Position numbers and translations under genes: made by a program. A DNA stretch of 64,000 nucleotides from Cytophagales bacterium (GTDB taxonomy: Bacteria > Bacteroidota > Bacteroidia > Cytophagales > UBA9547). The notes beneath the pieces were generated by a model. The model was not told the DNA's origin. It was given only the letters and a program-made list of their open reading frames with translations, and searched no databases. Where the stretch lies: NCBI GenBank assembly GCA_033765235.1, contig JANRIG010000014.1, positions 12,896-76,895 of the forward strand. Direction: 5' to 3'. Of the stretch, positions 2,418-31,026 are shown in pieces; positions within the stretch are counted from its first letter, which is position 1, and the number at the start of each line of letters is the position of its first letter.

Positions 2418-2477
2418 CAATACCGTTATACATTAAAGCAATAAAGTAAGTACATATTTTTTCAATATCCAAATATG

Positions 2478-3536: not shown

Positions 3537-3563
3537 CGCTTTATTCAGAATTACTTACTTTCG

Positions 3564-3571
3564 CAAAAATA
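3564..3571 (-). promoter_or_regulatory. Candidate Bacteroidota -7 promoter box (TATTTTTG) for PorP/SprF paralog 2
   Basis: The minus strand reads TATTTTTG, an exact match to the TAnnTTTG consensus, 28 bp upstream of the start codon at 3536. Confidence 0.35.
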
Positions 3572-3729
3572 GTTAAATATTTATGATTTCAACACATTGG
3601 TAGTTACTTTCGTATATATAGTTGTATATATCTTTAATTTTACATTATGATACGTGCAGATTTTAATATTCTCTTTTTTTATATTAATATTGAAATCAGA
3701 TTTATTTTCAAGAAACTAACAATTGCTTT

Positions 3730-15700: not shown

Positions 15701-18700
15701 ATGTAGGTGCAGTAAACTTTCAATTGTACAGCACAGGACCTACCCCTTGTAATACAGTATCAAGTTTTGTAACCCTTCGTTTTGATGCTACTCCTCAAGT
15801 CACAGTAAGTGCAGGACTTGACCAAATAGTATGTGCTGATAATCAGCTGGTAAATCTCAATGGAGTGATTGTAAACCATACATTAGGTTCACAAAGATGG
15901 AACGCATTTAAACCAAGTACCATTACAGGCAATCTCATGCCACCTGCCAATGGAGTGGCTGCCAATGTAAGAGGCTCGTTCAGCGATGCGACTGATGTGA
16001 ATGCAAGCTACACGCCAAGCAGCGCAGATACTGTGGGTACCAATGCGTCGGGGGTATATATAGCACAGACTATCATGCTTTTACTCACAGTGAATGGTAC
16101 AGGTGCTTGTGCAAATCAAATATATTCAGATGAAATGAATGTGTCATTCACAGGGGTGCCTCGAATATCGCCTGTGATTAATATTTTTCCTGCTTCTCTT
16201 TGCGGAAATGAAACTCGACCCATTACACTTAGTGGTACATTTATTAATGATATAGGCAAACAAGCGGTATGGAAAACCACAGGTGACAATGGAATAAGCC
16301 CTTCTGCTTCCGTAAATAATCCACCTACAGTCACAGGAATAAGCTATGTGCTGTCTGCACAAGACAAAACAAGGGGCAATATTGGGTTTACATTTGAAAT
16401 AACGGGCAAAGGCACTTGCAAAGGCAGCTATAAAGTAGATACGCTTATGACCATAAGTCCAACACCTACATTGCAAGTCACTAACCAGACTGCTTGTGAT
16501 GATATTGCCGGAGCAGTGACATTCACTGGTATTACATCAGGAGTGAATCAAGCACGTTGGTTTACAGGTACTTGGGCAGGTCAAGGTTCACTATCTCCCG
16601 CAGGAGTGCAAGGAGTAGTGGCAAACAAAGTGTCTGTGGCATATACTCCATCTGCAGCAGATAAAGCCATGGGCAAAATAAGATTACAACTGGCATCGGC
16701 AGCGACTACCAATAGCTGCCCGCTCGATACCATATTTGCAGACCTTAAATTTGACAAAGCACCTGTAGTAAATGCAGGATTGGATAGAAATATTTGTGCT
16801 GATATTTCAAATATTACCCTAACAAGTTCACTTCAAAATCATCGTAATGCGATATGGCAAGCAGGAGCAAGTGCTACAGGCAGCTATTCACCTTCTGCAG
16901 CAGGCACTGCCATAGGCTATAACTTGTCTGCAGCAGACAAAGAATTGTCAAGGCTCACCTTTACAGTGACATCATCTGACCTGAATAGTGTGTGTGCTGC
17001 GGCTACTGATGAAGTAATAGTATCTATTACAGGCACTCCGTATGCAAGCATAGGCACCATAGATGTATGCTCATACAATGCTTACCGTATGGTGGGTACT
17101 GTGAATGGCAATGCACTCGAATCTGTATGGACGGTATTAGGAACAGGTGGAGGTACTTTTTCACCATCAAGGTTTGATATAAATGCGCGATATTTCCCTA
17201 CACAGGCAGAGCTCAACTCGGGCAAAATACAAATTGGGCTTATTGCGGTAGGCAAAAACACGTGTGGACCATACACTACCAGCAAACAATTAAATGTATC
17301 GCCCAATCCATTCCCTATCATAGATGCAGGCAGAGACCAAAAACTGTGCGTAGGCAGAATATTTGAAGTAGAGGCTGTGAACCCTAAAAAAGAATATACA
17401 TTCCAGTGGTATGCCTCATCTGCCACCAATCCCAATACCATAGCAGGATTTGATGTGCTATCTGCAAGGCTCACTGTGCCGGCTGCCACCAGCAATTATA
17501 TATTGAAAGCAACCAATAAAAAATTGGGTTGTATCACTTACGATACAGTATCTGTCATACCTGTGACGCCTGTGGACTTAAGATTGGTGCCTAAAGTATG
17601 CTTTAATGATACATTAATCATAGCCAAAACTACGGCAAACTCCCGAGTGATATTTACTGACGGTACTTATCAATGGTACAGAGACGGGTCATTCTTGCCG
17701 GGAGAAACAGACCCCAACATGCTCAAAGCAGTGGTGCCTGGCAATTACATACTTGAGTATCAGGAGTATGGATGTGTGAGTACAGATACTACCAATATAA
17801 AACCATTACCTATACTATCTACAGCAGGGATTGTGATTTGCCGTGGCAGTGAGGTAGAGCTAAAACCAAATGTGATATCTGTGACGGGGCTTGACAATAC
17901 CAAGTTTAGCATCAGTTGGGCTCAGGAATATAACTATGCTAACAATGGCATGAACAGGGCAGACAGTGTTGCACTCAAAGCATTGGCATCGTACAGGGCT
18001 ACCGAAAACCGTGTAAGTGCTAAATATTTGATACAGGCGGTAGATTTGTCAGATAACTTGGGTTGTAACAGCTACGATACTATAAGGGTGAAAACACATC
18101 CGCTCCCTCAGATGCAGCTCAAAGACAATCCGGCTTGCGAGGGCGATGTAGTATCGCTGGATGCAAGACCTATCACGGTGACCAGTCCGATAGTATTTAA
18201 CTACTATCCGAGTTTGCGCTCAGACACAGCACGTGTGATGTACAAATGGACTACCAGCTCTACAGTGCCTCTTACACCACCCAAAGATACTGCCCATGCA
18301 CTATCGCTTACTTACAGCAAAGACAAAGATATGTCGGGCACATATATTGCTACGTTCTCCATAGGCAATCCTAATGATGGATTTAGAAATACATGTACCC
18401 AAAAAGATACCTCTAAAGTGATGTTTAACAAAAAACCTGATGTAGAAAATGTAGATAAGCTCACCTACTGCATAGACGATCGTAATGGTATCACACTCGA
18501 TGCAGGCACCAGCACTAAAGATACACTCAGCTATTTGTGGATGTCATCGGGAAGTACTAATAGACAAGTGATGGTGTATGACACACTGATGTATTATTTC
18601 AAAGTATTCAATACCAAAGGTTGCTCAGTATTGGACAGCATACATGTAAAAGCCTCGTGCAAACCATTGGTATTTAAGCCTGACGCATTCATACCCGGAG

Positions 18701-18957
18701 GTAGTCAGGGTGAGGCTAATAAATACTTCATTGTGAAGGGCAAATATTTCAAAGACTTCCGCATAGTGATATACAATCGCTGGGGAGAGGTGATATTTGC
18801 CTACGAAGGTGCGTCAGAAGACTTTGCTTGGGATGGTAACTATAAAGGACAACCTATGCCGGTAGGTGTATATCCCTACATCATACACTACAAAGGTAAG
18901 TATGGGGAATATGCAGAGGAGCGGCAAGAGCGCGGAGCTATAACACTAATAAGATAG
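3730..18957 (+). CDS. Giant (5,075 aa) cell-surface adhesin-like protein with a T9SS type B (gliding motility-associated, CHU_C-like) C-terminal domain; SprB-class cargo
   Basis: This is an uninterrupted 15,228 nt ORF with an ATG start and the signal peptide MLKKLYIFIAITLSLLTVTHTYA. The mature N-terminus (THVVGGVLEY) is typical of this protein class. About 35 modules of about 100 aa occupy roughly 6230-17300. The last ~95 aa (PDAFIPGG...FIVKG...IVIYNRWGEVIF...WDGNYKGQPMPVGVYPYIIHY...GAITLIR) match the type B CTD pattern. Confidence 0.9.
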   Translation: MLKKLYIFIAITLSLLTVTHTYATHVVGGVLEYVRIGPGSLPNSSRYKVVLKLWRDAAGNPWFPPSALIEVRGDTLPINPLTATLPGGSFDPYVTTYPGGTTYPYGGINRMVSGTNSNAPQFKRDFTITWGGAQAALDTFMIRSGALSATAQNGNTRLFPSTNVPSYENPSWNRALKTYPTVQYNRDGYGFVKGVFNTVSGEVLSANGDRTNFTDACVGGRLCVEQYVNTCTFAPKVAIQWAEYIRVVDLPNIPGGYHMTFRLCCRNNALQNLNNPGSTSYAVYARIPDVARLDNATNTWQQLYTTLGININTTLGFNNNTTTGVSIVSGSSVTMGNYTSPGTGKSLVQMVRNSSPRFRSVPPLFVCSYNQFIEDVLGVQQNPAYDHGANDLDADSVQYEVVNAYDEQGPFTDTWGGLPATNINGTLFSGNMRLFATTLPGFPYPDNVNLATYRYAQYRSPYTPTNPLSNSASWQGIILNTSTGTMQIRPQVNVQGLYVVAIRAREFRKMNDGTLRFLGEVTRDYQFRVLNCPAPAIAAIGNSDQCNGTNTVNLVNNNINGISNFYWDTGRDRYTNTLAGVNNLRRRTDNTVNDFPLAANTTTATLPSFNFQNPGTYYVKLVIQRGTKCADSVYRPVNVTSVRAGWGQNPSGQVCVNNGVLFDPFMSSSVVGITTVSGSSTWTNPATNPIPTRRVSVTGVGFVNKMFKWMKPNGSLPVEGDTMQINNYPLPQPARVQRVVWNFGDNVQQIFSFSGSSLQPFGCIVGATSTLGLGIVCANTTVVAFNPAHVASVPGVRHAYTSSGSYVGSMTVWNQFGCQSSLTRSVVVIQNRPSATALGGPVCLNNPLITIPGTVSSAVGGIWSQTPLTGTFLSPISAVGPNLSMIYRLNTTVSPNLTVNLALSTYGNGACPTGVISNVGIGVLAAPAVDAGNNATICRNNRNYRVTGSITGLTNTGFWRTKGTGTFENGLTTISTSHLNAHTYTLSLADSTAGSVQLVLQSTNNNVCTAVKDSITLTLGPTSSIPTVNVGPDRQVGSNNTILTVTGVTYTNSPGIQWQAIPATGGTFTPIGTTTSTTMVYVPSAADIISTTVTLRAMTTIITTNGSCLNVFDDLKLTILPCPVVTIRVTNPTPCTNKAIVTVTGTFTGAGGAVWSGGLGTYLPSAISPNLETIAVGVQKTTLIYLPTQAEIDALIQNLTLTTTINGLCNPVSAVSENIVYQPAPILSIVGAPSISLCKNNSNVSLDFNGYKKLLGTLIPINFPDANITLDWSSTGRTSSLSPVNGKPTTYTAGTDTSLGAVRIFLTATQTNCLPVYDTLNVSFNNNPSLSAGPSQTVCDNNLVVSLSGSVTAPATGGRWRTSGTGIFQSTGTNESTLLNDIYIPNAANGTVTLTLSTTGASIGNGVGQCRVQTTFMNVSISPAPNVRFATVPTICENVASTAGISLSATISGSNVTSSTQGTWVSGAGTYSPGNSNFVISPDPINGGLMSASSIIYTPSTSELSAKTFALNVTASGLGNCISVNNTLVVTIAGKPLAKILTTNGPVCANNATINLTATISGATGQVWSGPVNSVTGGLSASYTPNTTEINSGRVVFRLQTLGELNNCNPEFDVATVNINLAPVVGTGGNIIACINDNVITITGNISSPATSGLWTTSGSGFFGASGSSSTLSLPVTDMTSVYRPSALDKSSALPIKLTLTSQGNGNCNPVFDIMNLSFAQTTTANAGSGYTICVNDFPINLNASGSAGSWQTAPGTFGSSGTSTSTQLVDTFTPNSTLPGIVSLTWRTNSTNQCPAVQSTVTFTVLSAPTVNTGGNITVCGTNRNVPLAGISSSGSGTWASGGFGNFTSTGASFSTGLNDVYVLHNNDILAGQVVLTLSSTNTNPCSQVRATKIIFITPPISSDAGPDQLFCVTQNVITVTGGVLANGSPVSVPTGYWMRHTTATGLFAAGVQTFIGNNTTYTLGLLDIQQAPLVLRFKANSFGACTAPAEDTVKYTFQRSPFGFIQSVSGAVCSDTAYISILASFTGAGGMEWLTTGTGTFFPDRFTANARYVPTAADVSRGFVDFSIRLLGSGVCNGATFGYTTVGISPKPSVSAGSDENICSNIGTVNLTGARVLNTVNNTPPTAVLWYTSNVSSLTGFSSNTNFSFTGFSTNSGASPTYTLSSNDLTNGSVTLYISVTGPGACRAQTARKILTIYDAPVVSVGSASETYCGDVASLTISGTTTYGTPIWQIHPTATGFGTLTSIAGGTKAAFVPVTTLGASMPLSVIFNFVVTTSTCNNVIGSKTIFLTTIPNVSITGGLTSICGDVLGQVTGLSAFSRTGAGLWSSTAPGGFFANNAVLSSGTFVPVQSFKDANHGRTFWITFTSDNNGICTARRDHREVLILTPPSITGAGLTDETYCTDINTLTLSNITITNASGYLIYSSGQGLFTASSANTLAGATPFTNQIYTPATVEKFAGTTIFTLSTTGVGSCAAISKQKAITYVREPGVFAGGDQTICASTSSFQLSASVSGFAGITWTTSGTGSFDNINILGPRYFWSKQDSINARNGVLVTITATVVGNSLCQPKTSRLRLNITPRPLITVTGPIEVCADTSGFPVRAILSLSNTGVNWVNISSTAPGSFFANAFNTTVTYVPSPDDISRRSVILLASTTGNGSCTPASNTITINIRPIPSITFTDYVVCKDVGNYIPLSFTGVTGSYVKQPISLGQHDVNNDLVTWASSGNGTFIDSAVVQVNELYSSNYQVTQEDKDLGKITLLAKLRSFDNLCKAVQSRINVTFIGTPIVNAGVDKSYCRTVGTVQLSGSVTGPETYKYYYKSHLAYHGRYASSNIIDSSLIQNVSVSTVQENFILNNDAFGEQKIILVASASGICKATYTDTLSLNIKAPINLTFSGTSSSIICSDSTYFDIVLHDTKPLGSGDSSTAQYPGYGVAWSARNALGVDASFSQFSPGVFAKRKLTYFPSTSDYQSGAVTFTYTTSGNGICPADSKSSTVAIRQAPDISTLAGLTYCSNNSTIVLTAQISNLTSVSPIVKWYSGGGFPGTFTSTNMSVGTATAPNFSNTYLPSTNQINDGNANLFVEIADANNLCKTKTQSQKVVIKKAPVVDPGVSGSVCSLSGLLLNGSVETNYTTTGASWSIVSGSPILSPTTTTLAVSSTLGTPNYVTSKANVTFSGAIFPTFRLTATETGCINVSADITYGYSATPQYPTIAGGNFCGSDGISLTVAGAIGNDIWSTTATGFFASTKTNTSSKLNDKYIPATGFVGAIHFVLTPNIGSLCGTPAGLNVAHTVSSGMAVNPGNKKIVAVCTNFEPLMIGTISGSNIGIWNSNGTGVFSIPGAEGKPLSTSGTALGGGNREISAIYRPTAADKSSGSVILTLSTSIDGTNICTIPVRDTVSIVFLPAPSTNGQGDKGLCTNVVISTAPGSGITFIGSAFLPSPNSLDPTLTPANGAQWKYANPGTSPGYFLSSGATTSVSDTTTTTLFGITLGMQPQVFIASPQDTARVMVEGTPLIFTLETVNNRNCNPAVSTVQISFAQSPSAYITTTLTSLCADLTEINLEGHIGVALDGVWSTTGAGSFNPDNIYTNTPKTYQLSTSETAILTPQNIYFNLQSTGNGPCRPVTSSVLTVTINPKPALDPGTDQTVCGDISQITLTGINTVSSAIVSAYRWYGGKGTISGMTAPATAMPAFYALNQLDEDFREAILTISTSGPGSCKPLSKNIKITVNPKPAIKASPSQELCNDLDIAFASANITNGLPAQWLAIRYNAGVATPAAGTISVLSTSTSSFVPGGTDAVADSIGIIAITSSTGCNIYRDTINIKLLPRPTVSVSTLAGQCADINSIPLNVTITNALGMTWGRNDKADADLDYATSRYISNPTYFLTQADKSVPFTTTIGFNVSTTGNGTCKTYMATVTVQLVPLPVVTTLGVSKCADISTFNLTDFVPFRQHTTGINWLSFGSGTLTGLAGSATDPTQWVYTPSQNDKNVGAVNFQLYSTGPTPCNTVSSFVTLRFDATPQVTVSAGLDQIVCADNQLVNLNGVIVNHTLGSQRWNAFKPSTITGNLMPPANGVAANVRGSFSDATDVNASYTPSSADTVGTNASGVYIAQTIMLLLTVNGTGACANQIYSDEMNVSFTGVPRISPVINIFPASLCGNETRPITLSGTFINDIGKQAVWKTTGDNGISPSASVNNPPTVTGISYVLSAQDKTRGNIGFTFEITGKGTCKGSYKVDTLMTISPTPTLQVTNQTACDDIAGAVTFTGITSGVNQARWFTGTWAGQGSLSPAGVQGVVANKVSVAYTPSAADKAMGKIRLQLASAATTNSCPLDTIFADLKFDKAPVVNAGLDRNICADISNITLTSSLQNHRNAIWQAGASATGSYSPSAAGTAIGYNLSAADKELSRLTFTVTSSDLNSVCAAATDEVIVSITGTPYASIGTIDVCSYNAYRMVGTVNGNALESVWTVLGTGGGTFSPSRFDINARYFPTQAELNSGKIQIGLIAVGKNTCGPYTTSKQLNVSPNPFPIIDAGRDQKLCVGRIFEVEAVNPKKEYTFQWYASSATNPNTIAGFDVLSARLTVPAATSNYILKATNKKLGCITYDTVSVIPVTPVDLRLVPKVCFNDTLIIAKTTANSRVIFTDGTYQWYRDGSFLPGETDPNMLKAVVPGNYILEYQEYGCVSTDTTNIKPLPILSTAGIVICRGSEVELKPNVISVTGLDNTKFSISWAQEYNYANNGMNRADSVALKALASYRATENRVSAKYLIQAVDLSDNLGCNSYDTIRVKTHPLPQMQLKDNPACEGDVVSLDARPITVTSPIVFNYYPSLRSDTARVMYKWTTSSTVPLTPPKDTAHALSLTYSKDKDMSGTYIATFSIGNPNDGFRNTCTQKDTSKVMFNKKPDVENVDKLTYCIDDRNGITLDAGTSTKDTLSYLWMSSGSTNRQVMVYDTLMYYFKVFNTKGCSVLDSIHVKASCKPLVFKPDAFIPGGSQGEANKYFIVKGKYFKDFRIVIYNRWGEVIFAYEGASEDFAWDGNYKGQPMPVGVYPYIIHYKGKYGEYAEERQERGAITLIR

Positions 18958-18987
18958 TGATAATTCAATGTCATTATTATTTCAGCC

Positions 18988-19012
18988 TTTGTTGGTGTTC
19001 TTCACCAACAAA
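18988..19012 (+). repeat. Hairpin element copy A (10 bp stem, 5 nt loop), 31 bp after the giant gene stop
   Basis: The sequence is tttgttggtg-ttctt-caccaacaaa. Stem and loop are the same as in copies B and C when each is read in the direction of its upstream gene. No U-tract follows directly. Confidence 0.7.
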
Positions 19013-19156
19013 CAACCGCACACATATTCTTCAATGAGAAATACAAAAATCCCGCTGTACGATAAGTTAGCGTAGCGATTGTCGAACGACAGATAAAAGA
19101 AGATTTTTAATCTTCACAATAAAAAATTTTTATTTTTTGTGCTATGGCTTAGATTT

Positions 19157-19258
19157 ACAGTATTCCTTCAGTCTGGCTTGTTGGTGAAGAACACCAACAA
19201 GGGCGAAACAGTATTCCTTCAGTCTGGCTTGTTGGTGAAGAACACCAACAAGGGCGAA
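19157..19258 (-). repeat. Perfect 51 bp tandem duplication (2 units), each carrying hairpin element copies B and C
   Basis: Units 19157-19207 and 19208-19258 are identical (acagtattccttcagtctggcttgttggtgaagaacaccaacaagggcgaa). The hairpins lie at 19177-19201 and 19228-19252. On the minus strand they read cttgttggtg-ttctt-caccaacaag, just downstream of the stop of the 19306-20529 gene. Confidence 0.85.
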
Positions 19259-19305
19259 AAAATAGAGGTAAGGTAAACTACGTTGAAATGATGGTTATAT
19301 AAACA

Positions 19306-20529
19306 TTATCGCCTTTGTATCAATGCTAAATATGCTGCTTGAAAATATTGAGCACCGCCTGAATAGTGGTCTGCATTGTCAAATTTAGTAAGAGAGACTT
19401 TGGCTGCGCCTTTGGCTTGCATGGCAGATAGTGCAATTTCGGCGTTGAATATTGGTACAAAATCGTCTTTGGTGCCGTGGTATAGGTTGGTTTCAGACAC
19501 TGGTTTCCAGTCATATAAATGATTGTCTTTGAAGGCTGCGAGCATAAGTGAGTCTGAGCCACTGAGTATGCCTGATTTGAAGGCAGGAACAAAAAGATTT
19601 TGAGGATTTTTGTTCACTTCGGCAAATATATCATTTTCAAGTTTTGTGGCATTGTCGGAGGTGAAGTAGTAGCTGAAGGGGCGGTTTATTTTATACACTT
19701 TATTATAGGTAGTGAGCACCCATACATAGTAGTTGAGAAATGTAAGGTCAGTGGTGCTATTTAGAATATATTTGGCAAATGATGTTTTGTCGAAAGCACC
19801 TGCGCCTATGTATGATGCTGTAATGGTAAATTGGGTAAAGTATTTTTCCTCTATCATTTTTTGCATAGCCATAGTAGCAAAACCACCTTCGGAATATCCT
19901 ACCAAAAATAGTTTTCCCCCAAGGGTAACACCCTTTAATATGCACAGTTCTTTGGCAGCACTGAGCATATCTATGGATGCTCTTGCAAGTGATGGGGCGT
20001 GCTCATAAGGGTGTGCCAATTCTTTGGTAGCACCATATCCCAAATAGTCGGGCGATGATACCACAAACCCTGATGCTGCCAAAAGTGCCGCTACATTACC
20101 TTCGCCGCCTTGGGTAGAATTATTGAAATAAGAGGGTGCATTGGTCTCGTCTGTCTCGCGTATGGTGCCGTGCTGGTGGCTTACCAATGCAAAGCTGCCT
20201 GCTATGTCAGGTATGCATACCAAGCCAGATGCGGTGACGGGGGAAAGATTTGTGGGTTCTATAGTTTTGTAAGTAATGCGATAAACTTTGATGCCATTGG
20301 TCAGTAACAGAGAGGCAAAGCTGTTGTTTGTGCCACTATTAGTACCTGCAAAGGCTGATAGGCGGTTTGCCATTTGGTCTTTGGTGTAGGTGCCGGCGAG
20401 TAGCGTATCGGCTAATACAGTGGGTGTATATGCAACCTTGTTGTCGGTTTTGGCTTCGGGGTCTTTGGTGGAGCAAGAGAGTAAGGCTGCCAATAGGAGG
20501 CAGGATGGTATATAATATAAAGTTTTCAT
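19306..20529 (-). CDS. Lipoprotein alpha/beta-hydrolase (lipase/esterase-like)
   Basis: It has a lipoprotein signal (LLAALLSCS). A nucleophile elbow G-Y-S-E-G-G (LVGYSEGGFATMAM) fits GxSxG. The length and layout are consistent with the secretory lipase-type alpha/beta fold. Confidence 0.6.
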   Translation of the reverse strand: MKTLYYIPSCLLLAALLSCSTKDPEAKTDNKVAYTPTVLADTLLAGTYTKDQMANRLSAFAGTNSGTNNSFASLLLTNGIKVYRITYKTIEPTNLSPVTASGLVCIPDIAGSFALVSHQHGTIRETDETNAPSYFNNSTQGGEGNVAALLAASGFVVSSPDYLGYGATKELAHPYEHAPSLARASIDMLSAAKELCILKGVTLGGKLFLVGYSEGGFATMAMQKMIEEKYFTQFTITASYIGAGAFDKTSFAKYILNSTTDLTFLNYYVWVLTTYNKVYKINRPFSYYFTSDNATKLENDIFAEVNKNPQNLFVPAFKSGILSGSDSLMLAAFKDNHLYDWKPVSETNLYHGTKDDFVPIFNAEIALSAMQAKGAAKVSLTKFDNADHYSGGAQYFQAAYLALIQRR

Positions 20530-20607
20530 GGCTTTATAACAATGAAGTGGGGTGAAAGGTTGCCGTAATAGTCTATTTTTCTATAGGTTGTGTATGACTA
20601 ATGAGGT

Positions 20608-20651
20608 AAAAAAATCTCTTTACTGGTCTTAGTATCTTGCTGAGACCAGTG
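20608..20651 (-). terminator. Candidate terminator of the che operon
   Basis: On the minus strand there is an 8 bp stem (actggtct/agaccagt) with a 13 nt loop. A 6 nt spacer and a T7 run follow. It starts 40 bp after the cheR stop. Confidence 0.4.
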
Positions 20652-20690
20652 AGGGGACAAGAAATAGATGTAAACTAAATGACATTGATT

Positions 20691-21527
20691 TTACGATATT
20701 TTTTTATAAATTTTATAACCGGGAGCGTAGTATTCGAAATATTGACCATATTCTTGAGGCATATTATCGAAATATCCTATAATAAAAATGCCATCATGGC
20801 TCAATGATTTGTGAAGGGAATCTAATACTTTCATTTTGAGTGAATCATTAAAATATATCATGACATTTCTGCAAAAAATAATATCAAATGTATGAGGCAT
20901 AGGGTCATACACCAAGTTGTGTTGGTACAATTCTGAGTATGTTTTTAGTGAATTTTTGATAGTGTAAGTATTGTTTTGCAGTGGTGTAAAGTATTGGTAC
21001 AAAGTACCATAAGGGTTATATTCCAAATAATTTTTATTATACACTTGCATGGCATGGTCATCATAAGTAGCTGATTTAGATATTTCTATAAATTTATTGC
21101 TAAGGTCTGTGGATATGGCTTTGCACTTGTGAAATATCCCTACTTCATGGGTCAATATAGACATAGACCATACTTCTTCTCCGGTACTGCAGCCCGAATG
21201 CCAAATTTTTATGTTATCTTTATGTGACAAAAGTGGCATATACTCGTTTTTGAGATATATCCATAGGTCTGTGTTTCTAAACATTTCTGTGAGTCCTACT
21301 GATATTTCGTCTTTGAAATCGAGCATAAAATTGTAATCAGACATGAGTTTGCGCCACAAGTCTAAAATACCATCCAGCTCAAATTTGTGTATGATGCGTG
21401 AGAGCCTTCTTTTGATAGATGAAGGCTCATATCCGCTAAAATCATAACCATACTTTGTCATGAGCACTTGATTGATGGCTATTAGCTCTTGGTCTGATAT
21501 TTCGGTGTTGTTGGTAGTACTCACCAT
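20691..21527 (-). CDS. cheR: Chemotaxis protein methyltransferase CheR
   Basis: The N-terminal helical domain is CheR-like (LMTKYGYDFSGYEPSSIKRRLSRII). It is followed by a SAM-methyltransferase core (IWHSGCSTGEEVWSMSI, IFCRNVMIYF). Confidence 0.85.
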   Translation of the reverse strand: MVSTTNNTEISDQELIAINQVLMTKYGYDFSGYEPSSIKRRLSRIIHKFELDGILDLWRKLMSDYNFMLDFKDEISVGLTEMFRNTDLWIYLKNEYMPLLSHKDNIKIWHSGCSTGEEVWSMSILTHEVGIFHKCKAISTDLSNKFIEISKSATYDDHAMQVYNKNYLEYNPYGTLYQYFTPLQNNTYTIKNSLKTYSELYQHNLVYDPMPHTFDIIFCRNVMIYFNDSLKMKVLDSLHKSLSHDGIFIIGYFDNMPQEYGQYFEYYAPGYKIYKKIS

Positions 21528-21535
21528 TATTATTA

Positions 21536-23338
21536 TTATGACAATACAGAAATTTCATTGATATTGGCAAATATTGCGTATATGGTGGATAGTGATCCGT
21601 CCATACCTTTGCCTTGCGAAAAGTGTACGAAGTATATATAAGGCAAACCATCGTTTGAAGTTAAGGTAATGCCTGTATTGTAAGGTAGATTGTGTTGCAG
21701 AGAGTCGTGCACGGCAGATAAATGAAAATTGTCATTATTACAAGGGTGTAAGAGCTCACTGAAATTTTTGTTTTTTATGTCTTTTCTTTTAAGTTTCAGA
21801 TTGTCGAGCAAGTGTTGGTTGGCAGATTTTATGGTAAAGTCAGGGTTTAGTTCTATCATTCCGAATATTTCATTTATGGCATTTAGTTTGTTTTTATATT
21901 CATTTTCAGTTTCTTTTTTTTCGGTGGTAAAGTTGGCAAACATCAATATTTTATATGGCTTATTATTAAGGTCAAAAAGTGGGTTATAGTTTATCTGCAT
22001 CCATATTTCTTTGCCGTTTTTGTCTATTTTTCTAAACTCTCCGGAGTTGAATTGGCCCATTTTAAGGCTTTGCCAAAGCATATTATGTTTTTCGGAATCT
22101 TGCTCGTCATGGGGTAAAAATATTTTTTCATTTTTGCCGATAAGTTCATCTTTTTTGTACCCGATAACCTGTGCAAACATTTCATTTACATCCAATATAT
22201 TACCGTTTAGGTCGAGGTGTACACAAGCATTGCTTTTGTTGATGGCATCGAGCATAGAATGATTTAGGTTGGTCTCGGCAGTGATTTCTCTCAATTTTTG
22301 TTGCAATGCTTCTTGAGCAGCTCTGAGTTCCTCTTCATTTTGCATGAGGGTATTTTCTTTTTCTTTGAGTGCAATGTTTATGTCTTCGGATATTTGCAAT
22401 AGCGATGACATTTTGGTTGCAGATTTTATGGTATGGAGGTTTATGGCAAAACTCTCTGCTACAGCAGATATGAGTTCTACTTTGTTTTCATCTATAATAT
22501 CAAAAGATGCTATCTCAATGGCGCCATAAGCCACATTATTTGTCATGAGTGGCACTATGAGCACACAATTGGGTGTGGCATGACCAAGGCCTGAGGTGAT
22601 GTGTACATAATTTGGAGGTATGTCTGTAAGATATATTTTGTCTTTTTCTAATATACACTGCCCTACAAGACCTTCTTTTAGTTCTATTCTTTTTTCTAAA
22701 TGCTTAACTCTATCATAAGCGTAACAGCCTGTGAGGGTTATGTGCACATCACCGGGGTCTGAGTCTTCTATGATATATATGCCTCCTTGATTGGCAGATA
22801 TATATTTTACCAATTGTGAAATGACCAATGTAGATATTTCATGAATGTGTGATTGAGAATGTGTTTGAAGCAACTGTGCAAATTTTGATTTGCCGGCCAC
22901 CAGCCATAATCTCATTTTTTCATCATTTGCCAATGTTTTGAGTTTGTGTTGCATGTCATTAATTGCTTTGAAAAGGCTGTGATTTTTCATGCTTTCGTCA
23001 ATAGTATGTGAGCTATTGTAGTTTGAGATATTATTTATCATATTTTCAGCATTTTGTATAATATAGTTGCGCTCGTATATTGACATATTTACTTGATCAT
23101 ATACATGGCTGTTCAGCTTCCCTGTATTCACAAAATTTTTTATGGGGGCAATAAAAGTATGGCTAATGATGATATATAGTATGATAAACGGCAGAGAAGA
23201 TGCTGCCACAATAGCCAACTTGGCATATATGCTTTGTATGGTGCACATATACAATACAAATATGACACCTGCAGTGATGTTTAAGAATAGTAATAACATG
23301 GCAGTGTAGTATATTCTATTTATGTATTTGTTTTTCAT
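21536..23338 (-). CDS. Membrane-anchored sensor-like protein: 2 TM helices, GAF, coiled coil, PAS, PAS-like; no recognisable output domain
   Basis: Two N-terminal hydrophobic helices are joined by a very short loop. A GAF-like block follows (GGIYIIED...LVGQCILEKDKIYLTDIP...LIVPLMTNNVAYGAIEIASF). A PAS domain (GKNEKIFLPHDE...FRKIDKNGKEIWMQINYNPLFD...KILMFANFTTEKK) is related to the PAS domains of the MCP in this operon. I saw no kinase, MCP-signalling, GGDEF/EAL or DNA-binding motifs. Confidence 0.65.
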   Translation of the reverse strand: MKNKYINRIYYTAMLLLFLNITAGVIFVLYMCTIQSIYAKLAIVAASSLPFIILYIIISHTFIAPIKNFVNTGKLNSHVYDQVNMSIYERNYIIQNAENMINNISNYNSSHTIDESMKNHSLFKAINDMQHKLKTLANDEKMRLWLVAGKSKFAQLLQTHSQSHIHEISTLVISQLVKYISANQGGIYIIEDSDPGDVHITLTGCYAYDRVKHLEKRIELKEGLVGQCILEKDKIYLTDIPPNYVHITSGLGHATPNCVLIVPLMTNNVAYGAIEIASFDIIDENKVELISAVAESFAINLHTIKSATKMSSLLQISEDINIALKEKENTLMQNEEELRAAQEALQQKLREITAETNLNHSMLDAINKSNACVHLDLNGNILDVNEMFAQVIGYKKDELIGKNEKIFLPHDEQDSEKHNMLWQSLKMGQFNSGEFRKIDKNGKEIWMQINYNPLFDLNNKPYKILMFANFTTEKKETENEYKNKLNAINEIFGMIELNPDFTIKSANQHLLDNLKLKRKDIKNKNFSELLHPCNNDNFHLSAVHDSLQHNLPYNTGITLTSNDGLPYIYFVHFSQGKGMDGSLSTIYAIFANINEISVLS

Positions 23339-23985
23339 GGCTGTTGATTTAAAGTATAATTAATAATTTTCTCATGGTTTTGTATTACAAGGTCTATAAA
23401 CTTGATATCGAATGTGAATATGAATGATGGGCTAATGGGAGCTTGCTGTATTTCAAAATTGTTTTTGTATATGAATATGATATTGTTGTAATTCATATCA
23501 TATATGATTTTTCGGTGCAGGTATTCTGTATTATTTATTTCAAGACTTGGCACATGTGCATAGCAAGCTATTTTGAATACATTGGCAAAATGAGCAATGG
23601 CAGACGCTGTGACGATATTGGCAGTTTCGAGCATTATGGCTTTTTTGAAAGTGTCATCCATACATATTTTGTCTGCAGAAAAGTATGAATAATACATGTC
23701 AGCCTCGGCACAGGGAATGGAGAAAAACGATTTGCCTGTTATTTTCCCTCTTATTTCAGATTCTATATAGTAGGTTTTGGATATGTCTTTATGAATATTT
23801 GGGAGCAATTTTTCTAAACTTATCATACTGGCTTGCCCCGGCTTTACAGGATGTTTGATGAGCTTTTGCAATGAGTCTGCTGCTTTGTGAAATGCATCGT
23901 TGATAATGGCTTCGGCGGTATCGCTCTCTGTGGGAGACATGTAGTTTTGCACTATTTGCTCGTATATATCGCTTTTAGTTGTCAT
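23335..23985 (-). CDS. CheC/CheX-family-like protein (putative CheY-P phosphatase)
   Basis: It contains LETANIVTASAIAHFANVFKIACYAHVP, which is E-x2-N-x22-P, the core of the CheC/CheX/FliY active-site motif. The upstream D/S position is Ala. A looser N-terminal site is SDTAEAIIND. It is embedded between cheA and the GAF-PAS gene with overlapping stop/start codons. Confidence 0.5.
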   Translation of the reverse strand: MTTKSDIYEQIVQNYMSPTESDTAEAIINDAFHKAADSLQKLIKHPVKPGQASMISLEKLLPNIHKDISKTYYIESEIRGKITGKSFFSIPCAEADMYYSYFSADKICMDDTFKKAIMLETANIVTASAIAHFANVFKIACYAHVPSLEINNTEYLHRKIIYDMNYNNIIFIYKNNFEIQQAPISPSFIFTFDIKFIDLVIQNHEKIINYTLNQQP

Positions 23986-25780
23986 TGTATTGAAGTTTTG
24001 ATACTTTGAATAATTCTGTGATTACAGACGGGATATCTAATACCAAGCATACATTTCCATTGCCCAGTATGGTGGCACCACTGATGAATTTAATATTTTC
24101 GAGTGGTTTCTCGAGTGGTTTTTCTACAATCTCTTTTTGCTGAAGCAGCCTATCTACCACAAATCCTACATCTTTGCCCCCATAAGACACAATGATGACA
24201 TAAAGTCTGTCATATGCGTCTAATTTGTCAAATGTATGTTGGAGTGCTTGCTTGTATGAGTTGTCGCGGTCATGAAATATGTCTGACAAGAACACGATGC
24301 TGATATTTTTGTTGAGATAGGTAGCTATCAATCCTTTGTTTATTTTATGAATATCTTTTTTTTGCAGCTGTATCACCGCTTCTGTGTAGGTGAGCGGTAT
24401 TGCAAACTCATTGTTGTCAAGCTCAAATAATAATGCAGCTTTCAATGCCATAGAAGAGGGTAGCGATAGCTCTATTGTAGTGCCTGCATTCACTTCTGTA
24501 GTTATTTTCACTTTTGCACCTATGGCATCCATACTTTTTTTGACCACATCCATTCCCACACCTCTTCCTGATACTGACGTTATTTTGTCGCTCGACGAAA
24601 ATCCGGGTTCAAATACAAGGTTGATAATCTGGTCTTTGGTCATTTTGCTTGCAAAATCTGCATTTATTATCCCCTTTTCTATAGCTTTAGATTTGATAAT
24701 GTCATGATTAATGCCTTTGCCGTCATCAGTAATTTTGATGACAATAGTTTCTTTTTCGCTGGTAGCACTTATAGTGAGGCTGCCAATTTCATTTTTGCCG
24801 AGTGCAAGTCTTTGAGCAGGACTTTCTATTCCATGGCTTATAGCGTTTCTTACTATGTGCACCAATGAGTCTGATATGATCTGGAGCACATTTCTGTCTA
24901 TTTCTGTTTCTGCTCCCTCTATTATTAGATTTACTCTCTTGTCTTCAATCACAGCGGTGTCTCTCACTACCCTGTGTATTTTGTTGAAAAGTATATTGAG
25001 TTGTACAAGCCTCACATTCATGACCGAATATTGCAGCTCTGAGGTGATACGCATAAGCCTTGAAAATTCATTTTTGCGACCTGTACTTTGCACAGAAGTG
25101 ATTACTCTGTCGCGCTCTATGAGCAGCTCGCCTACCAAGTTCATGAGGTTGTCTAATTTTTTTACGGGTATTTGTATGATATCCGAAAAAGTGAGTTTGT
25201 TTTCTGTGCCATCAACAAGGTCATTGCTTATTATATCTTCACTCAAGTTGGTGTCCGGCAATGGATCTGTAATTTTATTTTTAGGCGTATCATCATCATT
25301 TGTCAAATCAGGTTTGTTATTTATTTCAATATTTTGATTTAACACTTTTTCGCCGGCAGATTTTATCTTTTGGCTCGGTATAGAGCCGTAGCCTTCTTTT
25401 GAATTTCTGATAAGTACTTCGAGTTTGGTTTTTAGGCCTTTGTATTTTACTTGCTCAGGTTTGGCAGATTTTATATTTTGAATCATGCTCACCAATAAAT
25501 CGTTTGCTTTGAAAAGGTCGTTGAATATTTTTTCTTCTATCACTATACTTCCTTTTCTTATTTCGGCAAATATATCTTCCATTACATGGGCCATGTCTGC
25601 TATGTGGTGGTAGCCCATGGCAGATGCATTGGCTTTGATGGTATGGGTTATTCTGAATATGTTATCTATGGCTTTTTTGTCTGAGTGTGATTTTTCGAGC
25701 TTGGCAAACAGCATATTGAGCTCCTCAGATCCTTCGGAGGCTTCGGCTACAAATAGTTCTTTTAGTTCGTCGTCTTTCAT
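23975..25780 (-). CDS. cheA: Chemotaxis histidine kinase CheA
   Basis: It has an Hpt domain (FRITHTIKANASAMGY) and a low-complexity linker. The dimerisation/HATPase core shows HIVRNAISHGIE, DDGKGIN and GRGVGMDVV. A C-terminal CheW-like domain is present. Confidence 0.9.
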   Translation of the reverse strand: MKDDELKELFVAEASEGSEELNMLFAKLEKSHSDKKAIDNIFRITHTIKANASAMGYHHIADMAHVMEDIFAEIRKGSIVIEEKIFNDLFKANDLLVSMIQNIKSAKPEQVKYKGLKTKLEVLIRNSKEGYGSIPSQKIKSAGEKVLNQNIEINNKPDLTNDDDTPKNKITDPLPDTNLSEDIISNDLVDGTENKLTFSDIIQIPVKKLDNLMNLVGELLIERDRVITSVQSTGRKNEFSRLMRITSELQYSVMNVRLVQLNILFNKIHRVVRDTAVIEDKRVNLIIEGAETEIDRNVLQIISDSLVHIVRNAISHGIESPAQRLALGKNEIGSLTISATSEKETIVIKITDDGKGINHDIIKSKAIEKGIINADFASKMTKDQIINLVFEPGFSSSDKITSVSGRGVGMDVVKKSMDAIGAKVKITTEVNAGTTIELSLPSSMALKAALLFELDNNEFAIPLTYTEAVIQLQKKDIHKINKGLIATYLNKNISIVFLSDIFHDRDNSYKQALQHTFDKLDAYDRLYVIIVSYGGKDVGFVVDRLLQQKEIVEKPLEKPLENIKFISGATILGNGNVCLVLDIPSVITELFKVSKLQYNDN

Positions 25781-25787
25781 AATATTA

Positions 25788-26822
25788 TTAATCTAAGCAT
25801 CCTACAATATATGCGGGTATATCTTTGAGGTCGAGTATTTGTGATACAGCATTCATCTCTACAGCTGCTTTGGGCATGCCCCACACTATGCTGGAGAGTT
25901 CGTTTTGAGCTATAGTCATGCTACCTTGCCTATGCATTTTGAGCATACCTGATGCTCCGTCTTTGCCCATTCCTGTGAGCAATATGCCTATACTTCTTTG
26001 TTTATACACCTCTGATATAGAGGTGAATATGCCATCTACTGATGGGTGATTAAACTCTTTGTATGTATTGTCATCACATTTGAACAAATATTTTTCATTG
26101 AGTTTAGTGATTTTCATATTACAATCACCGGGCATGAAATATGCTGTATTGGCCTTGAGTACTTCGTCCGGGGCAGCTATCTTCACATCAAATGGTGAAA
26201 TGGCGTGAAGCCTTGATGCAAATGACTTAATAAACTCATTGGGCATGTGCTGTGCTATTACTATGGTAATGGGCAAATTTTGTGGAAGGTTGACCAATAT
26301 ATATTCTATAGCACCGGTGCCTCCCGTAGATGAGCCAATGGCTACTATATCATACGGACAAGTGTTTGAAAATGTATGGGTTAAATTATTCTTTTGTAAA
26401 TATTTTTTGTGTTTTAATATATCTATTTCAGATGCTTGTTTTATTTTTTGTAAAATTTGGGATTCAAGTTCTCTTATTTTTGAGTTTATGAGTCCAAGTG
26501 GTTTGTCTATGAAGTCTATAGCCCCTTCATTGAGTGCTTCTATGGCAGAGTCGGGGTTTGTGGCTCTCAGGCTGCTCAGTATCACTATAGGTGTAGGGTT
26601 TTCAGACATTATTTTTTTGATGGCATACAGCCCGTCATAGTCTTTCATGATGAGGTCAAGCAGGACTACATCAGGCTTGAGTAATTTTGATTTTTCAAAT
26701 GCTTCTTTTCCATCTTTGGCTGTGTCTGCTACGGTAAATTGGTTGCTGTGCATAATCATGTCGCTGAGTATCATTCTCATGAAGCCTGAGTCATCCACTA
26801 TGAGTACTGACACTTGTTTCAT
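25788..26822 (-). CDS. cheB: Protein-glutamate methylesterase CheB (REC plus methylesterase)
   Basis: The REC domain shows VLIVDDS...VVLLDLIM. The CheB catalytic domain shows IGSSTGG, AQHMP and LTGMGKDG. Confidence 0.9.
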   Translation of the reverse strand: MKQVSVLIVDDSGFMRMILSDMIMHSNQFTVADTAKDGKEAFEKSKLLKPDVVLLDLIMKDYDGLYAIKKIMSENPTPIVILSSLRATNPDSAIEALNEGAIDFIDKPLGLINSKIRELESQILQKIKQASEIDILKHKKYLQKNNLTHTFSNTCPYDIVAIGSSTGGTGAIEYILVNLPQNLPITIVIAQHMPNEFIKSFASRLHAISPFDVKIAAPDEVLKANTAYFMPGDCNMKITKLNEKYLFKCDDNTYKEFNHPSVDGIFTSISEVYKQRSIGILLTGMGKDGASGMLKMHRQGSMTIAQNELSSIVWGMPKAAVEMNAVSQILDLKDIPAYIVGCLD

Positions 26823-26839
26823 AATATTTTTAATGTTTT

Positions 26840-27202
26840 TTAGACCAAGGCATTTTTTACCACACTTATCAATTGCTCAGAGGTAAATGGTTTTATGATA
26901 TAGTGGCTGGCACCGCGTTTTATGCCTTCTTCTACTACAGACTCTTGACCTACAGCACTTATCATCACTACTTTGGACTCTATCTCTTCTTCTTTGAGTA
27001 CATTGAGTATGTCTAAGCCGAGCATATCGGGCAGTATATTGTCGAGGGTGATGAGGTCAGGTTGCATCTCTATGGCCATGTCTATGGCAGATTCGCCATT
27101 GCCTGCCATACCTACTACTTGATATCCTGCCTCTAATAGGGTGTCTCTGATGATGGTGCGCATATACAGCGAGTCATCTACTACAAGTACTTTTTTTGCC
27201 AT
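26840..27202 (-). CDS. cheY: Single-domain response regulator CheY
   Basis: This is a 120 aa REC-only protein (KVLVVDDS, LITLDNILPDM, ISAVG, YIIKPF) located between cheW and cheB. Confidence 0.9.
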   Translation of the reverse strand: MAKKVLVVDDSLYMRTIIRDTLLEAGYQVVGMAGNGESAIDMAIEMQPDLITLDNILPDMLGLDILNVLKEEEIESKVVMISAVGQESVVEEGIKRGASHYIIKPFTSEQLISVVKNALV

Positions 27203-27243
27203 AATAATATTGTTTTGCGAGTTGTTAAATTTAATATTCTACC

Positions 27244-27768
27244 TTACATCAATGTGCTCACTTCTTCTTTTTTGATTAATCTATATATATCAATGAGTAT
27301 TATCAACCTGTTTTGTTTTTTTACTATACCAAGTATGTAGCCACTATCTATAGATGTGCCTTGTATGATATTTGGTGTATTATCTATGTCTTTTTCTGAG
27401 ATTGCCAGTGTATTGGGCACTTCTCTCACAAGTATGCCCATTTTCACCTCATTGCTTTCTACCACCAAGGTGTAATTTTGAATAGAGGTATTGGCAGTAT
27501 CTTTTTCTAAAGCTAAGCCTAATCTTTCTTCAGGGTCTATGATAGACAAAATATTGCCTCTGATATTGGCCACCCCTTTGATATAGCGCGGAGCCAAGGG
27601 CACTTTGGTGATATTGGGAGTGATAACAACCTCTTTTATCTGGTCTATCATCAGGCCATATTCTTCGTTTCCAAGTTTAAAGACTATTACCTGCGATGTT
27701 TTCAGATTGCTTTGGGCTATATCTTCCATGCTTTTTTCTTGCGATATGCTTTTTACTGCGCTTTGCAT
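27244..27768 (-). CDS. cheW: Chemotaxis coupling protein CheW
   Basis: This is a 174 aa single CheW-like domain (VIVFKLGNEEYGLMIDQIKEV...GVANIRGNILSIIDP...LIILIDI). Confidence 0.85.
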   Translation of the reverse strand: MQSAVKSISQEKSMEDIAQSNLKTSQVIVFKLGNEEYGLMIDQIKEVVITPNITKVPLAPRYIKGVANIRGNILSIIDPEERLGLALEKDTANTSIQNYTLVVESNEVKMGILVREVPNTLAISEKDIDNTPNIIQGTSIDSGYILGIVKKQNRLIILIDIYRLIKKEEVSTLM

Positions 27769-27775
27769 AGTTATA

Positions 27776-30306: not shown

Positions 30307-31026
30307 ATGAAAGTGCTTATTGTAGATGATGATAATTTGTCTGTCAAAATATTAGAATCATTATTAAAGTCTCACTTTTTGCATATAGTAAGCGAGATAT
30401 CAATAGCCAAAGACATAGATGAGGCAAAAGTAAAAATAGAAAACACATCTCCTCAGCTATTATTTTTAGATGTACATTTTCCCGAAAGCACGGGGTTTGA
30501 TTTGCTCAACAGTCTAAAAATTATTACATTTGAAGTCATCATTACTACTGCTACTGAAAACTATGCCATAGATGCTTATAAAGTAAATGCCATCGATTTT
30601 TTGCTCAAGCCTGTACAAATAGATGATTTGGAACGCTGCCTCAACAAAGTCATAAATAAGTTGAACAATACAGGCATTATACCTGCCATCAGTAAGAAAA
30701 AATTAACTTTACCTACCATAGGAGGCTCTCTGTTTGTGAATATTAACGATATATGTTTTTGTGAGGCAGATAATAATTATACCAAGATATACTTATCAGA
30801 TGGCAAAAGTGAGACAATCACCCTTTCGCTTAAAGAATTAGAGGCATTATTGCCAACAAATTTATTTTTTAGAATACATAAGTCTTTCTTAGTAAATTTT
30901 GAAAAGATTGTACAATATAATAAGTCGGAAGGCGGTACCATAGTTGTAGAAGATTATCACAATCGTATGTTGCCTGTATCAAAGCAAATAAAAGAGACGC
31001 TTATCAATAGGCTGAGGATTTCATAA
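30307..31026 (+). CDS. LytTR-family response regulator (REC plus LytTR DNA-binding domain)
   Basis: The REC domain shows KVLIVDDD...LLFLDVHFP...LLKP. The C-terminal LytTR-like domain shows ICFCEADNNYTKIYL...FFRIHKSFLVN. No histidine kinase gene is adjacent other than cheA. Confidence 0.85.
   Translation: MKVLIVDDDNLSVKILESLLKSHFLHIVSEISIAKDIDEAKVKIENTSPQLLFLDVHFPESTGFDLLNSLKIITFEVIITTATENYAIDAYKVNAIDFLLKPVQIDDLERCLNKVINKLNNTGIIPAISKKKLTLPTIGGSLFVNINDICFCEADNNYTKIYLSDGKSETITLSLKELEALLPTNLFFRIHKSFLVNFEKIVQYNKSEGGTIVVEDYHNRMLPVSKQIKETLINRLRIS

Follow-up and report, generated by a model that had tools for sequence, protein, structure and literature searches.

What does a membrane sensor without any output domain do in the middle of a chemotaxis operon? 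The question is raised by a 64,000-nucleotide stretch of a Cytophagales bacterium (contig JANRIG010000014.1 of assembly GCA_033765235.1; hereafter, the window), in which the gene of a 600-residue protein with a transmembrane (TM) hairpin, a GAF domain and two PAS domains is packed into a che operon, between the gene of a 216-residue CheC-like protein and cheR. The open reading frames (ORFs) of the window were called and their proteins scanned with Pfam and NCBIfam profiles, and the gene assignments given here rest on that scan. Our answer is a tentative one, to which we would give somewhat less than an even chance: sequence comparisons suggest that the 600-residue protein may be a sensory or localising partner of the adjacent CheC-like protein, a putative phosphatase of phosphorylated CheY (CheY-P).

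An output-less membrane sensor and its CheC-family neighbour

The 600-residue protein is identical to an NCBI entry named ‘MAG: PAS domain S-box protein [Cytophagales bacterium]’ (MAG, metagenome-assembled genome). Its AlphaFold 2 (AF2) model, built from an alignment with 46 homologues (mean predicted local distance difference test, pLDDT, 85.8), accounts for all residues. The N-terminal half consists of helices at residues 2-33, 37-72 (after a loop of ~3 residues), 78-105 and 121-159 and of the GAF fold at 165-283; the C-terminal half is an uninterrupted helix (284-369), a PAS fold (371-470), a further helix (472-491) and a second PAS fold (493-592). The TM-GAF-coiled coil-PAS-PAS architecture that an earlier note on this DNA had read from the letters alone is thus borne out by Pfam, by hydropathy and by the model. 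Conservation is highest in the GAF domain, the long helix and the first PAS domain (PAS1); the TM hairpin, the HAMP-like stretch and the second PAS domain (PAS2) are poorly conserved.

Hydropathy peaks of 2.29 and 2.23 lie near residues 13-31 and 40-58, and all 48 che-linked homologues carry at least one TM-like segment. In the relatives, the second TM helix is followed by a proline, IGEGxF and GLGxxLxEMRxKL, a HAMP-like stretch. The window sequence has no Pfam HAMP match in this region; 3 of 10 close relatives (best 3e-5) and 13 of 30 paralogues do, and the best PDB matches of the family profile are Af1503 HAMP chimeras, with weak E-values of ~0.07-0.2. The GAF domain scores 53.8 bits against Pfam GAF_2 (cut-off 28.6) and 22.5 bits against Pfam GAF (cut-off 22.4); its motifs ITSGLG..P and GAIE.ASF are invariant in the family alignment, and the closest solved GAF domains are those of PtsP and of cGMP phosphodiesterases. 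PAS1 reaches 76 bits with PAS_9 and 79 bits with TIGR00229. The C-terminal 123 residues align to positions 3-102 of the 103 of PAS_9 at 25.8 bits, slightly below the cut-off as a lone sequence; of 16 family members, 13 match a PAS model here, and a PDB search with the family profile hits eag-PAS and LOV structures. Foldseek returned the tandem-PAS modules of MmoS, DosP, FixL, NifL, PpsR and XccBphP (E 1e-15 to 1e-11).

No match to HisKA, HATPase, MCPsignal or GGDEF was found at E<=0.1 in the Pfam scan, and the family alignment holds no conserved histidine in the long helix. The protein is output-less: it has no kinase domain, no signalling domain of methyl-accepting chemotaxis proteins (MCPs) and no cyclase domain, as the earlier note had stated. 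The cryptic output domain that the same note had considered for the C-terminal ~120 residues is not there, because these residues form a full-length PAS domain. The 600-residue protein must therefore act via protein-protein contacts. NifL, PpsR, XccBphP (through its PAS9 output), MmoS and DosP have the same tandem-PAS fold, and the first three signal by contact and without catalysis; however, none of the five is a che-operon component and none has a TM-HAMP-GAF N-terminal half.

The protein belongs to a family of several hundred relatives. They are TM receptors with a variable N-terminal module (none, dCache, sCache, 4HB_MCP or PilJ) followed by HAMP, GAF, a helix and two to five PAS domains. 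Among the 120 best matches listed, the GAF-PAS relatives contain GAF, PAS, HAMP and Cache domains only, and the matches bearing MCPsignal or STAS align through PAS alone, without a GAF domain. Kinase, cyclase and MCPsignal domains are absent from all 30 paralogues scanned.

The 216-residue protein is identical to a Cytophagales MAG entry annotated as ‘hypothetical protein’. It has no Pfam match, and NCBIfam CheC reaches it only below threshold (E=0.0085). A word-indexed homologue search returned only the protein itself; an exhaustive search returned 177 representatives of ~200 residues each. The ‘CheC/X-like’ label of the earlier note is nevertheless right, because the profile of 71 relatives matches Thermotoga maritima CheC (1xkr, 2f9z) over its full length (positions 2-173 of 202, E=8e-18). 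Pfam CheC matches 28 of the 71 relatives and CheX 18, and the Thermoflexibacter ruber relative bears the NCBI name CheC.

The active-site consensus of CheC, CheX and FliY is D/S-x3-E-x2-N-x21/22-P (PMC12887009). We assign to the window protein a single intact site, since the signature is present once (E120, N123, P146) and the first site, an E-x2-N near the N-terminus, is degenerate (A26, N29). In the relatives the second site is kept almost without exception (E in 70/71, N and P in 71/71), with 100% conservation in all three operon types. The protein thus classifies, by sequence, as a divergent CheC-family member, CheX-like in the number of its sites and CheC-like in its sequence, and as a predicted CheY-P phosphatase. 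It is also a long-branch member, in which near-universal residues are changed (D122->A, L88->F, V129->A, W190->F) and E120, N123 and P146 are retained.

Co-inheritance of the sensor and the CheC-like gene

Homologues were mapped in a scan of one genome per species, which gave 79 loci, and in a metagenome scan for the CheC-like protein with a 14-sequence alignment; L-numbers below denote loci of these comparative sets, annotated with profiles of the Che proteins of the window. The order MCP-CheW-(CheD)-CheY-CheB-CheA-CheC-like-GAF/PAS-CheR is kept, with tight junctions, in about 45 of the 79 genome loci, which answers the concern of the earlier note that homologues might not be syntenic with che genes. 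The genera with the full order include Marivirga, Fulvivirga, Chryseolinea, Dawidia, Parachryseolinea, Pseudochryseolinea, Chryseotalea, Ohtaekwangia, Flexithrix and Agaribacillus. When homologues of 29-44% identity were looked up, metagenome contigs and Fulvivirga showed the same order; three of the four homologues were che-linked, one paralogue was an orphan and another adjoined CheB.

The most constant neighbour of the GAF-PAS gene is the CheC-like gene. In L089, overlapping genes for CheY, the CheC-like protein and the GAF/PAS protein stand with no CheA, MCP, CheR or CheB within 7 kb, and the same CheY-CheC-like-GAF/PAS module is found in L105, L111, L114 and L063. In L167 (5532-11245, a Thermoflexibacter-like contig), an unknown 217-residue protein is followed by CheA, the CheC-like protein, a GAF-PAS protein of 650 residues and then directly gldH; no MCP, CheW, CheR or CheB was called in that neighbourhood. 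One clade of the neighbour-joining (NJ) tree holds 59 of the 63 GAF/PAS-linked CheC-like proteins irrespective of operon type, including four of the five from CheY-CheC-like-GAF/PAS modules, and is separate from the CheC-like proteins of GAF/PAS-less operons. Within this clade the first CheC site has mostly decayed (E in 16/63, N in 28/63, against 13/17 and 12/17 in GAF/PAS-less sister operons), which fits a helix that may have been freed from catalysis and become available for another role. The CheC-like protein is taken as the likely partner because the pair persists without MCP or CheR, because its GAF/PAS-linked members form one clade and because the first site has mostly decayed in that clade.

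In L089 itself (6627-14526), the CheY, CheC-like and GAF-PAS proteins measure 120, 221 and 1085 residues, the last with four PAS domains and no output domain, and the genes of a response regulator and of a PAS-HisKA-HATPase-REC-Hpt hybrid kinase run convergently towards the module.

The earlier note had offered three mechanisms: tethering of the soluble MCP to the membrane, gating of CheR and gating of the phosphatase. The last fits the comparative data best (the pair is kept in L089, L167 and L114, and the CheC-like proteins next to GAF-PAS form one clade); the physical interaction is inferred, and so are its regulatory direction, the ligand sensed and the output in the cell. The 600-residue protein would be a dimeric, membrane-anchored sensor without catalytic output. 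In Cytophagales-type bacteria its gene would have been inserted, between the CheC-like gene and cheR, into a Bacteroidota che operon that is self-sufficient without it. Its most likely partner would be the single-site CheC-family protein encoded directly upstream and translationally coupled to it. The sensor would bind the CheY-P phosphatase and either localise it at the membrane or alter its activity when the GAF domain or PAS1 senses a cytoplasmic signal. Sensory information would then enter at signal termination, in addition to the soluble PAS-MCP and CheA.

Several points weigh against this partnership. Because motifs of the two proteins themselves served to retrieve the loci, the locus counts should not be read as unbiased frequencies; in the comparative sets, gene starts were set by a crude longest-ORF caller, and the trees are NJ trees without support values. 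Only two clade-specific positions, both weak, mark the GAF/PAS-linked CheC-like proteins, and the single-sequence AF2 model of the 216-residue protein (pLDDT 36) is unusable as fold evidence. In L013 and L049, cheR stands between the CheC-like and GAF-PAS genes, and a GAF/PAS gene lies downstream in only 15 of the 79 metagenome CheC-like loci. Finally, 46 of 103 family members are orphans without a che neighbour, often several per genome and in tandem, and 7 of 103 adjoin CheR or CheB without a CheC-like gene; the family as a whole is therefore independent of CheC.

CheD plays a role in regulating CheC. The CheC/CheD pair of Bacillus subtilis and T. maritima resembles the partnership proposed here in that a CheC-family CheY-P phosphatase of a che operon has its activity set by a partner and linked to receptor state; CheD is also encoded in 33 of our loci, most of the more distant type-1 operons. 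It differs in that the window protein has one intact site, with alanine at -4, and in that the proposed partner is a 600-residue membrane sensor and not a deamidase; the window operon and its near relatives have no CheD (in the window, the cheW-cheY gap is 41 bp). In Escherichia coli, CheZ is recruited to receptor clusters via CheA-short. FliY sits at the flagellar switch. In both cases a CheY-P phosphatase is spatially controlled by anchoring to a defined structure, as may be the case here; however, CheZ comes from another phosphatase family and sensor domains are absent from the anchor.

In the window, the minus strand from 20691 to 29965 is a single tightly packed gene string (Table 1). The 216- and 600-residue ORFs have the ATGA at 23335-23338 in common, the former overlaps the cheA stop by 11 bp (ATGACAACTAA), and 8 bp (TAATAATA) separate the stop of the latter from the ATG of cheR; these junctions had been reported by the earlier note and are exact at sequence level. 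Start/stop overlaps are frequent in operons and weak evidence by themselves. Those of the window carry weight because they are kept across about 45 loci, where the CheA/CheC-like/GAF-PAS/CheR junctions are the tightest of the operon (median 2-7 bp); at both junctions of the GAF/PAS gene the median gap is 2 bp, and ~75% of the gaps measure at most 10 bp. No minus-strand terminator was found within the window operon by a promoter/terminator scan, whose models do not extend to Bacteroidota promoters.

Table 1. Genes of the che operon in the window, and domains and sites of its two central proteins (aa, amino acids)
Feature	Positions	Strand	Basis
Soluble MCP, PAS-PAS-HAMP-MCPsignal, no TM segment	27776..29965	-	Pfam
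cheW	27244..27768	-	Pfam
cheY, single REC domain	26840..27202	-	Pfam
cheB, REC + methylesterase	25788..26822	-	Pfam
cheA, Hpt + dimerisation + HATPase + CheW-like domains	23975..25780	-	Pfam
216-aa divergent CheC-family protein, putative single-site CheY-P phosphatase	23335..23985	-	Family profile vs T. maritima CheC
Second CheC active-site motif, E120-x2-N123-x22-P146, A116 replacing D/S	23548..23628	-	Alignment of relatives
600-aa output-less sensor, TM hairpin/HAMP-like helices/GAF/long helix/PAS/PAS	21536..23338	-	ORF, Pfam, NCBIfam, AF2
TM hairpin, aa 2-72, two hydrophobic helices, loop ~3-5 residues	23123..23335	-	Hydropathy, AF2
HAMP-like two-helix linker, aa 78-159, degenerate in the window copy	22862..23107	-	HAMP matches of relatives, AF2
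GAF domain, aa 164-302	22433..22849	-	Pfam GAF_2
Continuous 86-residue signalling helix, aa 284-369, carrying KENTLMQNEEELRAAQEAL	22232..22489	-	AF2, family alignment
PAS1, aa 366-480, best-conserved domain	21899..22243	-	Pfam, NCBIfam
PAS2, aa 493-594, terminal, poorly conserved; no output domain after it	21557..21862	-	Profiles, AF2
cheR, final operon gene	20691..21527	-	Pfam

The operon exists in several versions. The nearest relatives (L002, L003, L008, L010 and L012) have Hpt and response-regulator genes after cheR, which are absent from the corresponding interval of the window (20529-20691). In L003 (5376-7373), cheA is represented by a 69-residue piece and a 564-residue protein without Hpt, and the near-identical L004 (4991-6988), from another sample, has an intact cheA of 665 residues; a frameshift or assembly error in L003 is possible. 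In L026 (9989-11818), L035 (9944-12817) and L049 (9599-12502), a second GAF-PAS paralogue stands directly upstream of the MCP gene or the che operons are paired (Agaribacillus aureus, L049). In the metagenome loci, which carry no taxonomy, the CheC-like subfamily occurs in full, GAF/PAS-less and reordered operons and in short modules: there are 15 cases of a GAF/PAS-less CheA-CheC-like-CheR operon, and another type has a different gene order and transmembrane MCPs. The GAF/PAS-less operons are also from Bacteroidota, their nearest named CheA relatives being Paracrocinitomix, Luteibaculum, Vicingaceae, Sphingobacteriaceae and Cytophagaceae MAGs. Because other Bacteroidota run the same operon without it, the GAF-PAS gene is a lineage-specific accessory added to a working Bacteroidota che backbone. 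The view of the earlier note that it is a tight operon member and yet not a standard Che component therefore stands, across about 45 loci with conserved junctions.

Non-canonical additions to che operons have precedents: Cpc7 and Des7 of the Myxococcus Che7 system are accessory proteins of an alternative chemosensory system. FrzB is likewise an accessory chemosensory protein (PMC6952110). All three are lineage-specific genes within che operons that modulate the core pathway, as the sensor may do, but their folds and positions are unrelated. Our literature searches turned up no account of this operon type or of the protein family; the kinds of arrangement known are CheC phosphatases regulated by a partner and accessory regulators of chemosensory pathways, and the version described here is apparently undescribed.

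Alternative partners and roles

The sensor could instead serve the MCP of its own operon. It would then be a co-receptor or membrane tether whose PAS domains heterodimerise with those of the soluble PAS-MCP, anchoring the array or relaying GAF and PAS signals through the MCP to CheA. The topologies would suit this: all 37 complete type-1 MCPs lack a TM segment, and every che-linked GAF/PAS protein has one. Their PAS domains are also alike, and the earlier note had pointed to a shared PAS signature. Between PAS1 and either PAS domain of the MCP, the identity is 37% (E=6e-30); the identical wording claimed for the signature did not stand, the 600-residue protein reading KNGKEIWMQINYNP and both MCP PAS domains having differing letters. 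Bipartite receptors are known from CetA/CetB of Campylobacter jejuni (PMC2628428) and from magnetotactic bacteria (PMC12442639), where sensing and MCP modules are on separate polypeptides encoded side by side and a PAS-only protein has no output. In CetA/CetB, however, it is the MCP part that sits in the membrane and the PAS protein that is soluble, whereas in the window the MCP is soluble with two PAS domains of its own, the output-less protein is membrane-bound and the two genes are five genes apart. With a reversed topology and no co-variation signal, the pair is not of the CetA/CetB kind.

The comparative tests lend this pairing no support. The MCP of the same genome is not the best PAS match of the sensor (it ranks anywhere between 1 and 33 among ~34), and the domain number and length of MCP and GAF-PAS protein are uncorrelated (Spearman -0.02); concerted evolution of the two sets of PAS domains is thus rejected for lack of signal. 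The MCPs of sister Bacteroidota operons without a GAF/PAS gene are equally soluble (8/8), which rules out a soluble MCP as a mark of sensor-bearing operons, and the sensor-phosphatase pair is present without any MCP within 7-8 kb in L089 and L167. The likeness of sensor and MCP PAS domains is a trait of the PAS subfamily, with no within-genome excess. On these grounds the tethering idea of the earlier note gains no support, and we consider a co-receptor role unlikely.

A connection to the methylation branch would place the sensor next to its downstream neighbour. It could be methylated by CheR and CheB on its EE-rich long helix, or recruit or gate CheR, and the family would then consist of MCP-like receptors without the kinase-control tip. 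In its favour, the gene after that of the sensor is cheR in about 45 loci (median gap, 2 bp). More distant paralogues have CheR and a REC-less CheB as their neighbours, in surroundings that lack MCP and CheA (L070, L085, L015), and L007, L047 and L051 have a CheB-GAF/PAS arrangement. Some paralogues have the MCP-typical N-terminal modules 4HB_MCP, PilJ, dCache and HAMP, and several members are labelled ‘methyl-accepting chemotaxis protein’ by Joint Genome Institute (JGI) pipelines. Furthermore, the helix between GAF and PAS carries a family motif, QEEEMRQNMEELQATQEEM, in che-linked and orphan members alike (the window version is KENTLMQNEEELRAAQEAL), in which heptad-spaced EE pairs are followed by xxA[ST], recalling MCP methylation helices. 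The Tsr segment EQQAASLEETAASMEQL resembles it.

The MCP methylation consensus is [ASTG][ASTG]xx[EQ][EQ]xx[ASTG][ASTG]. In full, it occurs in none of the 48 che-linked and none of the 42 orphan members, in which only its C-terminal half is found; a full match to the consensus is thus rejected for the family. Nor is the helix motif confined to che-linked members: it is at least as strong in orphans without CheR nearby, some of which have it two to four times (L046, L061, L067, L074 and L075), and may for that reason be a mere coiled-coil signature. Moreover, the window protein retains only the central EE pair (EELRAA at residue 336), the pair with the CheC-like protein occurs without CheR in L089, L167 and L114, and the operon already has a canonical substrate, the MCP, with a full-consensus site at residue 452. 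A role in methylation is, in our judgement, improbable.

A wider form of the same idea strikes us as decidedly doubtful. The Bacteroidota TM-(sensor)-HAMP-GAF-EE-helix-PAS(n) proteins would be a second class of chemosensory receptors, lacking the CheA-controlling tip, modified by CheR and CheB on the QEEEMRQNMEELQATQEEM helix and signalling via CheC-type phosphatases or SpoIIE/SiaC partner-switch modules (L070). If true, an adaptation-capable sensory input would act at the CheY-P dephosphorylation step.

The L070 operon (8243-17333; also L085, and L015 at 13776-21435), from Bacteroidales and Flavobacteriales MAGs, encodes CheR, a HAMP-GAF-PAS protein (792 residues), CheR, a REC-less CheB (190 residues), a TM-GAF protein (259 residues), a GAF-PAS-PAS-SpoIIE phosphatase (870 residues), DUF6272 and SiaC, with no MCP or CheA within 10 kb. 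Here, methylation enzymes appear to be joined to a partner-switch module.

It may also be that the 600-residue protein is a general-purpose sensor, merely co-transcribed with the che genes and signalling outside the pathway, for example to PAS-containing histidine kinases. The orphans, nearly half of the family, would accord with this, as would the hybrid kinase, rich in PAS domains, that adjoins L089 and the contacts that NifL, PpsR and the PAS9 output module of XccBphP make with non-Che partners. Nevertheless, across many genera and at identities of 27-47% the gene keeps its place, its orientation and its tight junctions, che-linked members group in coherent clades (41 of 47 have a nearest neighbour that is che-linked too) and the CheC-like partner gene co-diverges, and we hold such independence to be quite unlikely.

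That the protein is a decayed histidine kinase or MCP, truncated or with a cryptic degenerate output domain, is suggested by its TM-TM-HAMP-like N-terminal layout, typical of both, and by the degenerate HAMP of the window copy, but is effectively refuted already and has a negligible chance of being correct: the protein ends in a complete PAS domain, Foldseek finds a tandem PAS, the long helix has no conserved histidine, HisKA, HATPase and MCPsignal do not match, the same end-point is shared by over 100 intact homologues that are evidently under purifying selection, and cheR, starting 8 bp past the stop, leaves no room for a downstream remnant.

Gliding genes and implications

The surroundings of the operon bear on its possible output. 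An ORF of 5075 residues (3730-18957, plus strand) has a CHU_C type IX secretion domain at its C-terminal end, and two genes of the PorP/SprF family lie just upstream of it on the minus strand (1329-2420 and 2478-3536). A lipase-like gene (19306-20529) stands between this ORF and cheR; the adhesin locus is ~1.7 kb from the cheR end of the operon. The interval 1329-18957 looks like a SprB-like gliding adhesin locus, and suggests that the organism may be a glider with a type IX secretion system (T9SS). On the other side, a LytTR-type response regulator (30307-31026) is divergent from the che operon across a 340-bp AT-rich spacer; as a conserved che neighbour it is ruled out, since it is not kept in related loci.

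The cellular output would probably be T9SS gliding, because the SprB-like adhesin and SprF are encoded nearby. Little is understood of how gliding Bacteroidota bias their movement, and we know of no che genes in the gliding model organism Flavobacterium johnsoniae.

The analysis defines a Bacteroidota che operon backbone and an addition that is specific to Cytophagales: an output-less membrane sensor, inherited together with a single-site phosphatase of the CheC type. The sensor family is large (hundreds of members, with many paralogues to a genome) and has no annotation beyond ‘PAS domain S-box protein’; a defined partner for one of its members would explain a widespread orphan architecture. 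Should the sensor control the phosphatase, input would be received at signal termination and not by the kinase alone, an unusual logic for chemosensory systems.

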